A stretch of 64,000 bases of DNA from the NCBI GenBank assembly GCA_965223505.1, contig CBDCWP010000044.1, positions 1-64,000 on the forward strand, in the 5' to 3' direction. Source of the DNA: Planctomycetota bacterium. Its GTDB lineage: Bacteria; Planctomycetota; PLA2; JAEUHO01. The notes below the pieces were generated by a model. The model was not told the DNA's origin and did not search any database. It was given only the letters and a program-made list of their open reading frames with translations. Each line of letters opens with the position of its first letter. Within the stretch, counting starts at the first letter, position 1. Positions 24,758 to 37,435 of this stretch are shown here, piece after piece. The position numbers and the translations under genes are program-made.

Positions 24758-25450
24758 ATGTCCCTCACGAAGCAGCTCATGACCCGGCGCTCCACGCTGA
24801 CGCTCTTCACGGTGCTGCTGCGGCTGTACCGCAAGCTGATCTTCGGCGGGTTCCTCTTCGAGCACGATCGCCGTCTGCACCGCTTCATGCGCACGAGGGA
24901 GCCCGCGCTGTTCGCGGTCTGGCACCAGGACTTCCCGTTCACGCTCGGCTATCTGTCGCGCTGGAACGCACGCCGCAAGACGTACGCGCTGGCCAGCGCA
25001 AGCCGCGACGGCGGACTGGCGACCGCGGCGGCGGTGGGCGTCGGCTTCCAGCGCCCGGTTCGCGGCTCGTCGGCCCGCGGCGGCGCCAAGGCGCTGCTCG
25101 GACTCCACCGGTTGCTGAAGGACGAGCGCGACGCGTCGGTGGTCATCGTCTGCGACGGGCCGCGACCGCCGGCGCGCGAGATGAAGCCGGGCGTCGTGCA
25201 GCTCGCGCAAAAGACCGGCCGTCCGATCTGGTTGGTCCGGACGTCGTACCGGCGCAAGGACGTGCTGCACAAGTCGTGGGCGCGCTTCTTCATTCCGCGG
25301 CCCTGGTCGCGGGCGGTGTGTGTGGCGGACGGCCCGTTCTACGTCCCGCGCGAGCTCGATCGAGACGCGTTCGAGGCGACGCGCAAGGACCTGGAGGACC
25401 GTCTGAACGTGCTCGCCGACCGCGCCGACGCGCGCATCGAACGGATGTAA
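24758..25450 (+). CDS. DUF374 / lysophospholipid acyltransferase-family protein
   Basis: AVWHQ, ASASRDG, VRGSSARGG, DGPRPP and SWARFFIPRPW motifs. Confidence 0.88.
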   Translation: MSLTKQLMTRRSTLTLFTVLLRLYRKLIFGGFLFEHDRRLHRFMRTREPALFAVWHQDFPFTLGYLSRWNARRKTYALASASRDGGLATAAAVGVGFQRPVRGSSARGGAKALLGLHRLLKDERDASVVIVCDGPRPPAREMKPGVVQLAQKTGRPIWLVRTSYRRKDVLHKSWARFFIPRPWSRAVCVADGPFYVPRELDRDAFEATRKDLEDRLNVLADRADARIERM

Positions 25451-25534
25451 GGGCAGCACTTGTGGCTGCCCAATGGGGGCGTGTTGTAGGGGCAGCCCTT
25501 GTGGCTGCCCAATTGGGCGACCACATGGGTCGCC
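25447..25534. repeat. GTAG-type REP cluster (3 copies; third is interrupted by the IS)
   Basis: GTAAGGGCAGCACTTGTGGCTGCCC at 25447-25471; GTAGGGGCAGCCCTTGTGGCTGCCC at 25486-25510; inverted copy GGGCGACCACATGGGTCGCC at 25515-25534 completed by CCTAC at 26896-26900. Confidence 0.9.
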
Positions 25535-25559
25535 GGTTTAGGGAATGGCAAGCCCTTTT

Positions 25560-25765
25560 CTGTCGGCCGTGCGTCCTTTCCGCGTCGCCAGGGTCGGATC
25601 CGTCCACTCGGGTTTTCGAGCTCGCCTATTCGGGCGGCGTCATGAGGGGGAGTCGGACGCGCCTCTCAATCGCCTACACGAGCTGATGCGCTCAGCGGCC
25701 CGCCGGAGTACGCGCCCGTTGGTGTCCGATTCCTGGTTTCGCTTCCTCTCTCTCAGTGCGTTCGC
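25560..25765 (-). ncRNA. Predicted bridge/seek RNA in the IS non-coding end
   Basis: Non-coding end of ~230 nt downstream of the transposase with motifs GTAGG, CGCC, AAACC and ATCC matching target and donor flanks. AGCTCG/CGAGCT and TGAG/CTCA stems flank the target motifs. Transcript ends are unknown. Confidence 0.7.
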
Positions 25766-26812
25766 TCAGGCAGCCTGGCCTAGGCACCGACGCAGCGAGA
25801 ACACCTCGCCACGCGAGAACATCACCCACACGCCCACCAGTAGCCGGCGTGCAAGCGCCATTCGAACCTTGTTGCGGTGCATGCGCCTGAGCATCGGCTG
25901 TGCCCACGCCTTCACCTCTGGGTCGAAGGCCAGCAACCGAACCGCCCATTGCCCCAGCACCCAACGCAACTCGGCGTTTCCGCGTTTGGTCATGCGGCCG
26001 TGGTGCGCTCGATCCGCCGAGGCCGAAACGCGTGGAACGACACCCCCATAGCTCGAGATCTGTCGAGCACCGCGGAAGCGGGTTGCGTCACCCAACTCAG
26101 CTTGAAGCGTCAGAGCCGTCTGGGCTCCCGCCTGTGGCAGATTCCGAACGATCCAGCCTGAGACTTCGTCCTGCTCGGCCAACTCGCGGATTCGAGCGGT
26201 GAGCTTCTCGATGCGCTCCTGCAGAGCCGCAACGACATCCACCAGCGACTGCAGCGCCAGATCCTGGTTCTCATCACCCAGTCGCTGCTCGCGAAGCCAC
26301 TGGATCCCGCGCTTGGTGTACAGCTGCGTCACCGGCGCTCGCAGCAGGTACGCGTTGAGCATGCCGCGGATGTGCGCCAGCACGCTGGTTCGATGCTGAA
26401 CGAGCTGATGCCGAACCCGCAACACCTTGCGCTGGCCGAACTCGGCTTCGGTGGCGAAGTAGGTCAGTGCGTAGCGGTCCAGGTCGCCAAGGTACAGCCG
26501 GCGCGAGATCTCCTGGGCGTCGCGTCGATCCGTCTTCTTGCCCTGCTTCTTCAGATCGAGCTTCGTGGCGTCCACCACAAGCATCTCCAAACCCGCTTCG
26601 CGGCAGGCCAGCACGAACCAGCGGTTGCAGCCCAACGCTTCCACCGCGAAGCGCCCGCCGCCGTAGGTGCCAAGAAACGCAACCAGCGCCGCGGCCGCCT
26701 TTCGATCCGGCAGGCGCCACCGCCGCTCCTCTTCGATCTCGCCCTTCGCATCACGGACGCAGATTTGGGCGACACTCTTGTGCAGGTCGATTCCGACGTG
26801 GTACGCAGTCAT
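25766..26812 (-). CDS. IS110-family transposase/recombinase
   Basis: GIDLHK, VEALG and KTDRRDA (DEDD RuvC-like domain); C-terminal ELGDATRF...SSYGGVVP...SASA...GRMTKRGNAELRW. 348 aa, intact. Confidence 0.96.
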   Translation of the reverse strand: MTAYHVGIDLHKSVAQICVRDAKGEIEEERRWRLPDRKAAAALVAFLGTYGGGRFAVEALGCNRWFVLACREAGLEMLVVDATKLDLKKQGKKTDRRDAQEISRRLYLGDLDRYALTYFATEAEFGQRKVLRVRHQLVQHRTSVLAHIRGMLNAYLLRAPVTQLYTKRGIQWLREQRLGDENQDLALQSLVDVVAALQERIEKLTARIRELAEQDEVSGWIVRNLPQAGAQTALTLQAELGDATRFRGARQISSYGGVVPRVSASADRAHHGRMTKRGNAELRWVLGQWAVRLLAFDPEVKAWAQPMLRRMHRNKVRMALARRLLVGVWVMFSRGEVFSLRRCLGQAA

Positions 26813-26896
26813 GGGGTGGCAGTTCCTTCCTCGGCTGATGCCGTAAACACACTTGGCACGACCGAGGATCAGGGCTGCCACCCCCTATCCCATCCC

Positions 26897-27913
26897 CTAC
26901 GACCCGAACCGCTTCGCGCGGGCTTCGGTGTCCGGCTCCCACTTGCAGTACGGCGGATACCCCGCCATCTCCTGATGCGGCCGCGCCTTGAAACGCTTCA
27001 ACGTCCAGTTCCACGCCTCCGGCTGCGCGCGAATCACCTTGGCCAGCACGTCGTTGATGCGGGTCGTGAGCTCGATGACGCGTTCGTCGTCGCTGTCGCC
27101 GGTCAGGTCCCGCGCCAGATCGGGTCCGACCCACAGATCGAACCGACCGCCTTCCTTCGGCAGCATGAACAACGGGATCACCGGACGCCCGTAGCGCACG
27201 CCCAGCCAGCCGGGCAACGGCGTCGTTCGGCACGGCAAGCCCATGAACGGCGCGTAGATCCCGCCCTGGGTCGCCCGAACGCTGCGGTCGGCCAGGATCG
27301 CCGCGATGCCCCCCGACTTCACCGCCGCCGTCGCCGCGCGCGCGCCGCCCTTGCGGAACGTGCCGACCAGATCCCCGTGGCCGCGCAGCTTGGCCAGGAC
27401 GCGATTGACGGCCCGATGGGGGACGGCCTCGGCGACGAACGTCACCGGCGGGAAGTGCATGAAGAAGACCCGGATCCCGAGCAGCAGCTCCCAGTTGCCG
27501 ATGTGACCCGACACGAGAACGCCGCCCGACTCCCGGAAGCTGCGCACGTAGTTGCGCTCGGAGAGGTTCGCCGGCAGGTCAATCCAGCGATCCAGCTTCT
27601 CCCGCGTGAGCGGCTGGAGGTTGAGCAGCAGCAGGATCGAGCGCGTGTTCATCTGGAAGCTCGCCTTGACGATGCGCCGCTTCTCGGCCTTCGACTTGCC
27701 GTCGCCGAACACGACATCGAGATTCTGATAGGCGATGTTGCGGCCGCGGCCGTCGAGGTAGTAGATGACGATGCCGAGGCCGTTGGCGAACGCGATCACC
27801 CAGCGCGACGGCAGCGCGCTGAAGATCCTCACGACGCCGAGCATCACCGCGACCTGCACCTCCTCGTGGAGGCGCGCGAGAAACGAGCGCGGGCGTTGAT
27901 CGGCGGTCGCCAT
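26897..27913 (-). CDS. Lipid A lauroyl/late acyltransferase family (LpxL-like)
   Basis: NIAYQNL, SGHIGNWE, ILADR, PFMG and IRAQPEAWNWTLKRFK motifs. Confidence 0.9.
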   Translation of the reverse strand: MATADQRPRSFLARLHEEVQVAVMLGVVRIFSALPSRWVIAFANGLGIVIYYLDGRGRNIAYQNLDVVFGDGKSKAEKRRIVKASFQMNTRSILLLLNLQPLTREKLDRWIDLPANLSERNYVRSFRESGGVLVSGHIGNWELLLGIRVFFMHFPPVTFVAEAVPHRAVNRVLAKLRGHGDLVGTFRKGGARAATAAVKSGGIAAILADRSVRATQGGIYAPFMGLPCRTTPLPGWLGVRYGRPVIPLFMLPKEGGRFDLWVGPDLARDLTGDSDDERVIELTTRINDVLAKVIRAQPEAWNWTLKRFKARPHQEMAGYPPYCKWEPDTEARAKRFGS

Positions 27914-28020
27914 GTGCCGGAATCGTACGGCAGCCGCGGCCGGATTCACCGCGGCGCGCGAATCCTGTATGGGGTCGGCGCGGCACCGTGTAGGAAAGGG
28001 CGATTCCCCCGGACCTCTGC

Positions 28021-35419: not shown

Positions 35420-37276
35420 ATGAAACCGGCCGTCGTCCTCCTCCTGGTGCTCCTCTGCGCGCTGGCGGGCGGCGCGCCCGCCGAATCCGACGAACCGCAG
35501 CCGCTGTTCACCAATGTCGCGAAGGCGCTGGGGCTCGACGGCGTGCGGGCCAAGGACTGTGTCTTCACGGACGTGAACGGGGACGGATTCTGGGACCTGT
35601 GTCTGGACCGGCGGCGGCTGTACCTGAGTGAGGGCGGACGACGATTCGTGGCGCACGAGGCGTCCGGCATCGTCTTTCCCGAGATCCGGCGCGTGCCCGT
35701 CGGCCCGGACGGCGCGCCGCACGTCGAGAAGACGTCCACCGGCGCGTACGTCCCGCAGTACCTCTACTTCGCCGACGTGGACAACGACGGCGATCAGGAC
35801 GCGCTGTGGGGCGTCAAGTCGTGGTGGGAGGCGTTCGACGAGGCGGCGCAGACGTGGCGCTACGTGTGGTCGTGCGACCCGTTCGTGCGCAGCACCGTGT
35901 ACCTCAACGACGGCGCCGGGCGGTTCACGCCGGCCAGGCCGTCGAACTACAGCGCGCCGGCGTCGTGGGGACCGGTGATGGCCCTCGCGATCTGCGACGT
36001 GGACAACGACGGCAACCTCGACCTGTTCGAGGGGCGCGAGTACCGGCAGTACGGGCAGCTCTACGGCTGCGGCGTCGATCGTCTGTTTCGCGGCGACGGC
36101 GAGGGCGGCTTCACCGACGTGACCCGCGCGGCGGGCCTGTACACCGTGCCGGAGCCGGCCCGCGAGAACTCGTCGCGCCCGACGTACGGCGTGACGCACT
36201 GCGACTGGGACAACGACGGCGATCAGGACCTGCTGCAGCTCTCCTACGGACGGCAGTGGAACTACCTGTGGCGCAACGACGGCGACGGCACGTTCACCGA
36301 CGTCGGCAAGGCCACGAGCTTCGCGGCGGACGACATCACACACGGCCGGTACCCGGCAGCCGTCCAGCAGCTCATGAAGGAACGCGGCCTGCCGCCGCGC
36401 GAGGACGAGAAGCCGTTTCGCAGCAACGGCAACACGTTCGACTTCGCGATCGGCGACTTCGACAACGACGGCGACCTCGACGGGTTCATGGGGGAGATCG
36501 CACACTGGTGGGCGGGCGAGGCGTCGGACCTCCCGTCCATTCTCGTCAACGGCGGGAAGGCGAACGACTTCCGGTTCGCGCGCAGGACCGTCCGCGAGAT
36601 GTTGCCGGAGCGGACCTTCCGTAGCGAGCGCTGGAACTTCGGCGACCTGCACGCCGCCTGGCTCGACTACGACAACGACACGCGGCTCGACCTGTTGATC
36701 GGGTCCGGCGACTACCCCGACGGACAGTTCCTGCGGCTGTATCGCCAGACCGCCGACGGCACGTTCGACGAGGTGACGGAGATCGCCGGTTTCGACTGGG
36801 AGGGCTGCGGCAGCCTGAGCATCGGCGACTACGACCGCGACGGGGACGTGGACATCCTGGCGGGGCGTTCCTTCATGCGCCTGGACCAGGCGCATCGCGA
36901 CAAGTACATGGGCGGCATCGCGGTCAATGCGGTCGGGCTGTTTCGCAACGACGTGGCCGATCGCAACGGCAACCACTGGCTGAACGTGCGCTTGCGCGGC
37001 AAGGGCGCAGGCGGTTCGAACCGAAGCGGCCTGGGGGCGCGCGTCGAGGTGACGACGGGAGAGGTGACGCAGATCCGGGAGCTACGGGGCGGCAGCGGGC
37101 TTTCGAATCACCAGGATCCGCCCGAAGCGTGCTTCGGTCTCGGGACGGCGACGGTCGTGGATCGTCTGGTGGTGCGCTGGCCCCGCCGGGATCGAACGCC
37201 GCAGGTGTTCACGAACGTCCCGGCGGACCGGTTCGTCGTCGTCGTCGAAGACCGGGCGATGTTGGTGTTCCCGTAG
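35420..37276 (+). CDS. CRTAC1-like FG-GAP repeat protein with ASPIC/UnbV C-terminal domain
   Basis: Signal peptide; seven DxD/NxDGDxD-type repeats; NHWLNVRLRG..SNRSGLGARV..FGLG..VRWP. Confidence 0.92.
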   Translation: MKPAVVLLLVLLCALAGGAPAESDEPQPLFTNVAKALGLDGVRAKDCVFTDVNGDGFWDLCLDRRRLYLSEGGRRFVAHEASGIVFPEIRRVPVGPDGAPHVEKTSTGAYVPQYLYFADVDNDGDQDALWGVKSWWEAFDEAAQTWRYVWSCDPFVRSTVYLNDGAGRFTPARPSNYSAPASWGPVMALAICDVDNDGNLDLFEGREYRQYGQLYGCGVDRLFRGDGEGGFTDVTRAAGLYTVPEPARENSSRPTYGVTHCDWDNDGDQDLLQLSYGRQWNYLWRNDGDGTFTDVGKATSFAADDITHGRYPAAVQQLMKERGLPPREDEKPFRSNGNTFDFAIGDFDNDGDLDGFMGEIAHWWAGEASDLPSILVNGGKANDFRFARRTVREMLPERTFRSERWNFGDLHAAWLDYDNDTRLDLLIGSGDYPDGQFLRLYRQTADGTFDEVTEIAGFDWEGCGSLSIGDYDRDGDVDILAGRSFMRLDQAHRDKYMGGIAVNAVGLFRNDVADRNGNHWLNVRLRGKGAGGSNRSGLGARVEVTTGEVTQIRELRGGSGLSNHQDPPEACFGLGTATVVDRLVVRWPRRDRTPQVFTNVPADRFVVVVEDRAMLVFP

Positions 37277-37435
37277 GGGCGACCCTCGTGGTCGCCCAAT
37301 GAAGTGCGTTCAACCCCCGCTTGGGCAGCCACAAGGGCTGCCCCTACGTGCGAAAGGCCTGTAGGGGAGACCCTTGTGGTCGCCCAATGCAGTGCGTTCA
37401 ACCCCTGCTCGGGCAGCCACAAGGGCTGCCCCTAC
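37273..37435. repeat. Four GTAG-type REPs arranged as two tandem inverted doublets (REPIN-like)
   Basis: Copies at 37273-37297, 37323-37347 (inverted), 37361-37385 and 37411-37435 (inverted). 88-bp period with near-identical 25-nt spacers. Confidence 0.92.

Follow-up and report, generated by a model that had tools for sequence, protein, structure and literature searches.

The window analyzed here is a 64,000-nucleotide (nt) stretch of a Planctomycetota bacterium (GenBank assembly GCA_965223505.1, contig CBDCWP010000044.1, positions 1 to 64,000 of the forward strand). It carries an insertion sequence (IS) on the minus strand, placed within a repetitive extragenic palindromic (REP) unit. Judged from sequence, this is very likely an element of the IS1111 branch that pairs a recombinase of 348 amino acids (aa) of the DEDD/serine type with a bridge (seek) RNA of about 138 nt at its 3' end, in which two internal loops would bear the guides. 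The element and its surroundings comprise the following features, with left and right given in the orientation of the IS.

26894..26900, minus strand: left target, GTAGG (26900-26896) and core GG (26895-26894), the head of the split REP
25535..26893, minus strand: whole insertion sequence, 1359 bp, both copies of the core dinucleotide excluded, junctions read directly
26871..26887, minus strand: TAGGGGGTGGCAGCCCT, the left subterminal inverted repeat, with the 6-nt terminal extension ATGGGA (26893-26888) ahead of it
25766..26812, minus strand: transposase gene, 348 aa and stop codon
25588..25725, minus strand: predicted conserved core of the bridge/seek RNA, 138 nt within the 231-nt non-coding right end, from alignment and covariance model
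25539..25556, minus strand: AGGGCTTGCCATTCCCTA, the right subterminal inverted repeat, which holds a -35-like TTGCCA (25551-25546); the 4-nt tip AACC (25538-25535) comes after it
25515..25534, minus strand: right target, core GG (25534-25533) then CGACCCATGTGGTCGCCC, the remainder of the split REP
37273..37435, no strand: empty array of four REP units of the element's target family, one of them, at 37273, an exact GTAGGGGCGACCC candidate target

Insertion point and transposase

Read on the plus strand, the left junction is GGGCGACCACATGGGTCGCC / GGTTTAGGG... at 25534/25535 and the right junction ...CCCATCC... / CCCCTAC at 26893/26894, with the GG core dinucleotide duplicated so that it flanks the element on both sides. 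Excision of 25535-26893 together with one CC yields a 25-mer already named in an earlier, sequence-only reading of this DNA; two further matches to it, each with two mismatches, lie at 37273-37297 and 37361-37385, where none was expected (100 shuffles). Junctions and restored 25-mer thus bear out the claim of that reading that the element sits exactly within a REP, at a GG core. The boundaries it had drawn were reproduced exactly by the layout common to the relatives described below, and the length of 1359 bp agrees with ends that were placed, independently, by means of the subterminal inverted repeats in 18 of them. Compared with the complement of AGGGCTTGCCATTCCCTA, TAGGGGGTGGCAGCCCT matches at 7 of the first 9 positions, and by eye at about 15 of 18 with one indel. 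The REP head GTAGGGG contains the stop codon, TAG (26897-26899), of an open reading frame of 350 aa on the minus strand (26897-27949); the insertion point hence lies three bases beyond the end of this gene, which is left untouched.

The REP family follows the pattern GTAGGGG-NNN-CCC. Its sequence GTAGGGGNNNCCC has 8 matches in the window at no more than one mismatch, against 2.88 expected, and none of 100 shuffles reached 8. Alternating arrays lie at 25450-25534, adjoining the element, and at 37273-37435. These are short imperfect palindromes with a GTAG head, repeated between genes in alternating orientation, as defines REPs and bacterial interspersed mosaic elements (BIMEs). Two subtypes, with stems CGACC...GGTCG and CAGCC...GGCTG, alternate as inverted units in BIME-like fashion. 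The element sits in a unit of the CGACC type, and the exact GTAGGGGCGACCC unit at 37273 is unoccupied.

The transposase matches PF01548 (E = 5e-11) and PF02371 (E = 2.8e-19), corresponding to an N-terminal DEDD RuvC-like and a C-terminal Transposase_20 domain, and scores 181.5 bits against the cutoff of 140 for NF033542, the NCBIfam model of IS110 family RNA-guided transposases. In an alignment with 37 homologues (54-79% identity), D9, E58, D95, D98 and S265 are invariant. These would be the equivalents of the catalytic residues D11, E60, D102, D105 and S241 described for IS621 (PMC11208158). The serine motif reads G257-x-x-P260-x-x-x-x-S265-A266, with S-A in place of S-G, and residue 258 is V rather than a conserved L; for the IS1111 group, the published account gives proteins of 330-350 aa with a GL-P----S(T)G motif, in which T-A occurs occasionally (PMC11187229). 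The proteins most closely related to it (79% and up to 70% identity) come from collections of metagenome and viral contigs. Among PLSDB plasmids no protein exceeded 33% identity, and the best named match was a transposase of the ISHvo10 family (33% over 97% of the protein), ISHvo10 itself being described as a more diverged IS (PMC11187229). Resemblance to the solved IS621 and ISCro4 proteins is confined to the C-terminal domain (E about 2e-5; 2.3e-5 for IS621). Given this low identity and partial likeness, the lineage is distant from the elements studied so far.

Membership of the IS110 family and the IS1111 type, as proposed in the sequence-only reading, is supported by the protein models and by the architecture of the ends. 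Insertion is site-specific, one core dinucleotide lies on each side, and the extreme ends lack terminal inverted repeats, as in the IS110 family at large. The assignment to IS1111 follows published criteria, namely subterminal repeats, a downstream non-coding region and protein length, as set out in PMC11187229: the inverted repeats are subterminal (in the IS1111 group they measure about 7-17 bp), with extensions of 6 nt and 4 nt, and the non-coding DNA measures 231 nt downstream of the transposase gene (25535-25765) as against 81 nt upstream (26813-26893).

Predicted bridge RNA and its guides

A scan of a genome collection returned 71 loci, about 30 of which encode relatives of the transposase at 44-62% protein identity, in Planctomycetota, Gemmatimonadota, Myxococcota, Krumholzibacteria and other metagenome-assembled genomes. 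Both ends could be set via the subterminal inverted repeats in 18 loci and the window. They share one layout: left flank, core dinucleotide, a 6-nt extension (NNGGNA) and a repeat beginning TAG on the left; a repeat ending CTA, a 4-nt tip, core dinucleotide and right flank on the right. Most loci have GG as their core; in L018, whose left end was set by hand, it is GA. Loci were left out of the guide tests where the right end was unclear (L001, L022, L024), where the left end was cut by the contig (L007) or could not be found because the upstream sequence differs (L025), where the locus was truncated or partial (L004, L026, L027, L028, L030) or where it had no match to the RNA model (L023).

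The region downstream of the stop codon was aligned for 21 elements. RNAalifold recovered from this alignment a long helix, P1, and a hairpin, P2; a third hairpin, P3, was added by eye and tested afterwards. Together the three comprise 18 pairs, with 91.4% of cells paired and compensatory changes in 12 of the 18. None of 500 shuffles reached these values, and controls in which the helices were slid gave 30-46%. The covariance model built from the alignment has a single match in the window (25588-25725, 107.3 bits). The predicted RNA begins about 45 nt downstream of the transposase stop codon. All its matches fall within loci L001-L029, on the strand of the gene and downstream of it, save a weak one in L009; among 41 distant IS110 loci (L031-L071) there were none. 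Training sequences match by construction, and the informative matches are those of L029 (103.7 bits) and of the extra copies L010, L015, L025 and L027. The weak match in L009 (3871-3991, 18.2 bits, E = 0.0077) lies just downstream of that element and may be a remnant or chance.

For the guides, words from the flanks and ends of each locus were compared with its own RNA, with non-cognate pairings and 20000 shuffles of loci against words as controls. The RNA holds the following features.

25694..25701, minus strand: right target guide GGGCCGCU, located in the target loop (5' strand) and complementary, with one mismatch, to the right target (G)CGACCC
25673..25677, minus strand: left target guide GUAGG, the same sequence as the left target GTAGG
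25665..25672, minus strand: invariant C, second core base G, then AU... copying the first bases of the left end (handshake-like)
25643..25650, minus strand: CCCCCUCA, a candidate for the right donor guide, located in the donor loop (5' strand) by symmetry with the target loop
25618..25641, minus strand: hairpin P3, 7 pairs with 93% of cells paired and compensatory changes in 3 pairs, its 5' arm holding CGCC (25639-25636)
25609..25615, minus strand: left donor guide AAACC (25615-25611), followed by invariant C and second core base G (25610-25609)
25596..25599, minus strand: AUCC, an uncertain candidate for the right donor guide, outside the loop flanking P3

Three guides covary with the DNA they match. 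Over the six bases up to and including GUAGG, agreement with the left flank is 4.76/6, against 1.86 in non-cognate pairings, and over the five bases up to and including AAACC, agreement with the right tip is 4.74/5, against 3.01; both guides had been correctly placed by the sequence-only reading (25677-25673 and 25615-25611). In a scan of all columns made without prior assumption, the complement of the right target peaked at alignment column 32, on the 5' strand of the loop between P1 and P2, with a cognate match of 5.89/7 against 3.18 (18 loci; also 9 independent target groups). No shuffle out of 20000 reached the observed value for any of the three, also with one locus per target group (n = 8-9). 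The test in fixed register gave 4.18/9 for the right target guide; since four loci were off by one column, a tolerance of one column either way was used, for controls likewise. In the held-out locus L029 the guides matched its own flanks at 6/8 (right target), 4/6 (left target) and 4/5 (left donor). The right target guide thus precedes the left one, the order that IS1111 seekRNAs are described as having and that is reversed relative to IS110-type elements (PMC11187229). As in seekRNAs and bridge RNAs, the strands of an internal loop match opposite target strands across the core, and P1, P2 and the guides covary.

For the right donor guide, two sites come into question. CCCCCUCA matches its cognate left end at 4.53/7, a value reached by 8/20000 shuffles with all loci and 43/20000 with 9 groups. 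AUCC, proposed in the sequence-only reading, matches at 4/4 in the window, but its family signal is weak and no better than that of its rival (mean 2.42/4 against 2.00 in non-cognate pairings; as a 7-mer 3.63/7, with 2/20000 shuffles for all loci and 81/20000 for 9 groups). The left-end extension is conserved across the family, which leaves little power to test this guide. We judge CCCCCUCA probably the better candidate because it mirrors the target loop and flanks P3, AUCC lying beyond a conserved UGGAC.

Each left guide is followed by CG, a parallel that had been pointed out for this element and turned out to be a feature of the family (20 of 21 sequences). The exception, L018, with core GA, has CA in both loops; the second base therefore reads the second core position. 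The first base is an invariant C and stands opposite a C. The two bases after the CG of the left target guide copy the left end, the first in 16/17 and the second in 11/17 cases (0/20000 shuffles). They resemble the handshake guides described for IS621 (PMC11208158), but stand beside the other guide, and this feature of IS1111 elements may already be in print elsewhere; PMC13626964 mentions IS1111 in its references only. A corresponding match to the right target after the left donor guide was weak (9/16 and 4/16, 114/20000 shuffles) and is not claimed.

Some further observations concern the relatives. The two core copies of L005 differ, being GG at its left end and GC at its right end; in both L005 and L007 the right junction reads GC where a GG core is expected, with similar sequence after it (ATTTCTCAC and ATTATTCAC). 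Relatives also occupy repeated or palindromic targets, L020 and L021 at CTTGCGCC-GG-CGCAAG, the Krumholzibacteria group L011-L019 at a CCCCCCGG-GG-GG run, and L009 and L010 as two copies with similar flanks in one Myxococcota chromosome. In L023 and L029 the transposase frame stops well short of the end of the protein match and the copies look broken; L029 nevertheless keeps its full-scoring RNA. Further copies were seen in one Myxococcota chromosome, where L025 has no recognizable left end, its sequence upstream of 2501 being different. In L027 the protein match covers the C-terminal half only (residues 149-347) and the RNA is kept.

Predicted circle junction, proposed mode of action and alternatives

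Joining the right and left ends brings together a TTGACA-like and a TATAGN-like hexamer across a spacer of 17 nt (18 nt in L003). A -35/-10 pair matching at no fewer than 8 of 12 positions was present in 19/19 reconstructed junctions, those of the window and of loci L002-L021. The window junction reads TTGCCA-17-GATAGG (8/12), from hexamers at 25546-25551 and 26884-26889. Junction promoters are reportedly known for ISEc11.

By analogy with IS621 and ISEc11, the RNA would be produced from the right end and bound by the recombinase, which would carry out the strand exchange, and the element may be active today. In the proposed mechanism it would excise as a circle joined at ...TAAACC-GG-ATGGGA..., with the predicted junction ...CCCTAAACC-GG-ATGGGATAGGG..., and this junction would assemble the -35/-10 promoter. 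The target loop lies between P1 and P2, with the invariant C, the second core base and the two bases copying the left end after its left guide. The donor loop surrounds P3, where AAACC and then C-G would read the right tip, and CCCCCUCA on the opposite strand would probably read the left end. The circle would then recombine at the GG of a REP of the type GTAGG-GG-CGACCC. To call the element intact, and programmed for this REP family, is an interpretation at the level of its sequence.

Several results weigh against this interpretation. A minimum free energy (MFE) fold of the whole non-coding end, which the sequence-only reading had suggested as a check, was unremarkable when done on the single sequence, being no better than shuffles (z = +0.56). 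A search of 25300-27100 against Rfam at E up to 10 gave three chance microRNA matches only (E at least 2). An outer helix closing the donor loop was sought and no convincing one was found, and the two candidates for the right donor guide score similarly. Against its own target, the right target guide matches at 6/8, with one internal mismatch. The shuffle tests ignore phylogeny, which the tests with one locus per target group mitigate. The -10 hexamer of the window junction, GATAGG, is weaker than the TATAGN of most relatives, no sigma-70-like promoter was found within the linear element, and no second copy was found in the 64-kb window, from which movement in this host cannot be judged.

The promoter and copy-number results could also be read in another way, namely that the element is a well-preserved but inactive fossil whose features are intact and which no longer moves in its host, with the weak junction promoter or the mismatch in the right guide as possible causes. 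The single copy would fit, as the exact candidate target at 37273 stands empty, and so would the GATAGG hexamer and the apparent lack of an internal promoter. However, the reading frame is open with all five catalytic residues kept, and the RNA is among the best-scoring of the family. The right target guides of other relatives have, by eye, a mismatch at the identical internal position, and the junction of L002 also carries GATAGG. We consider inactivity rather unlikely, and the RNA-guided element outlined above the better account.

The guide map first proposed for this element followed the order known from IS621, with GUAGG before CGCC in the target pair and AUCC after AAACC, the target pair being closed by AGCTCG/CGAGCT and TGAG/CTCA stems. 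All four motifs occur where they had been placed and match perfectly in this one element, and the AUCC site shows the weak family signal given above. CGCC, by contrast, does not follow the right target: as a 4-mer it scores 1.89/4 against 1.60 in non-cognate pairings and as a 7-mer 2.56/7, a value reached by 2319/20000 shuffles and by 10703/20000 with independent groups. It lies inside P3, whose pairs covary, and the complement of the right target peaks instead at column 32, 5' of the left guide. The two stems are present here but not conserved across the family (51.3% of cells paired against a shuffled mean of 52.0%, equaled by 362/500 shuffles). As written, this arrangement is largely refuted and most improbable. 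The comparison of motifs with flanks that had been suggested along with it thus upheld GUAGG and AAACC, went against CGCC and gave a weak result for AUCC; the general interpretation of an RNA-guided element with a guide RNA at its 3' end stands, with two of the four motifs and both stems corrected.

It is most improbable that the conserved 3' region is instead a protein-binding or transcript-stability element, with the flank matches being target sequence carried along with the ends: the guides are indeed short (5-8 nt), but the words that match are located within the element, at a depth of 60-165 nt, and not at its ends, they change in step with the targets across independent lineages, and one loop strand is sense and the other antisense to the target, as pairing of an RNA with both DNA strands predicts and as is reported to have been shown experimentally for IS1111 members (PMC11187229).

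Relation to known systems and implications

The nearest described counterparts are the IS1111 seekRNA elements ISEc11, ISPa11 and ISKpn4 (Siddiquee et al. 2024, PMC11187229). Like the window element, they are described there as inserting site-specifically and as having subterminal inverted repeats that carry short extensions, a transposase in the range of 330-350 aa and, behind its gene, a long stretch of non-coding DNA; in the RNA of both, the segment complementary to the top strand comes first, 5' of its bottom-strand counterpart. Bridge RNAs have likewise been predicted in the right end of IS1111 elements, according to PMC11208160. The window element differs in its very distant protein, given the ceiling of 33% identity in PLSDB, and in the S-A of its serine motif as opposed to S-G. 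Its RNA alignment has no Rfam counterpart, and its likeness to the RNAs of ISEc11, ISPa11 and ISKpn4 is taken from their published description.

With the bridge RNA system of IS621, as presented by Durrant et al. 2024 (PMC11208160) and Hiraizumi et al. 2024 (PMC11208158), it shares two internal loops that read both sides of the core on opposite strands, a REP target, handshake-type bases beside a guide, and a DEDD and serine active site. IS621, however, has its RNA at the opposite end, an inverted order of guides, and CT rather than GG as core. There the core is described as part of each base-pairing interaction (PMC11208160), whereas in the window an invariant C faces a C at the first core position, and the handshake-like bases, unlike those of IS621, come after the left target guide, as copies of left-end bases. 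The elements ISPpu9 and ISPpu10 (Pares-Guillen et al. 2025, PMC12288879) similarly insert at a fixed dinucleotide in REP/BIME arrays and form a circular intermediate joined there. They differ in host lineage and REP family, and ISPpu9 has an AG core and was reported without a junction promoter (PMC12288879), in contrast to the conserved junction -35/-10 of the window family.

RNA-guided recombination by IS110 and IS1111 elements, the 3' RNA of IS1111 elements and REP targeting, on which Tobes and Pareja 2006 is cited as well, are already published. What is added here is an element from a deep, mostly uncultured and poorly characterized lineage, to which the conserved core mismatch and the handshake-like bases lend moderate interest. 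As a tentative proposal, which we regard as possible but somewhat doubtful, the first core base would be deliberately left unpaired (C opposite C) in both left guides, and the handshake would stand beside the guide that pairs with the bottom strand, rules unlike those of IS621. If this were true, the bottom strands, named by the direction of the transposase gene, would be exchanged first, or equivalently the module of gene and RNA would be inverted relative to the recombination site in comparison with IS621. This would explain at the sequence level the reported reversal of guide order between the IS1111 and IS110 groups, and would give a compact set of rules for programming a GC-rich orthologue.

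RNA-guided IS110/IS1111 recombinases are in development as programmable tools for genome editing, and the IS1111 branch is far less characterized than IS621. The window element and its roughly 25 relatives provide a worked guide code for a distant lineage, comprising the bases that are fixed and those that read either side of the target and the right end of the element, and the element is a candidate for testing. For annotation, carrying the guide order of IS621 over to IS1111-type elements misplaces the right-hand guides. The locus itself is a further example of REP arrays as landing pads.

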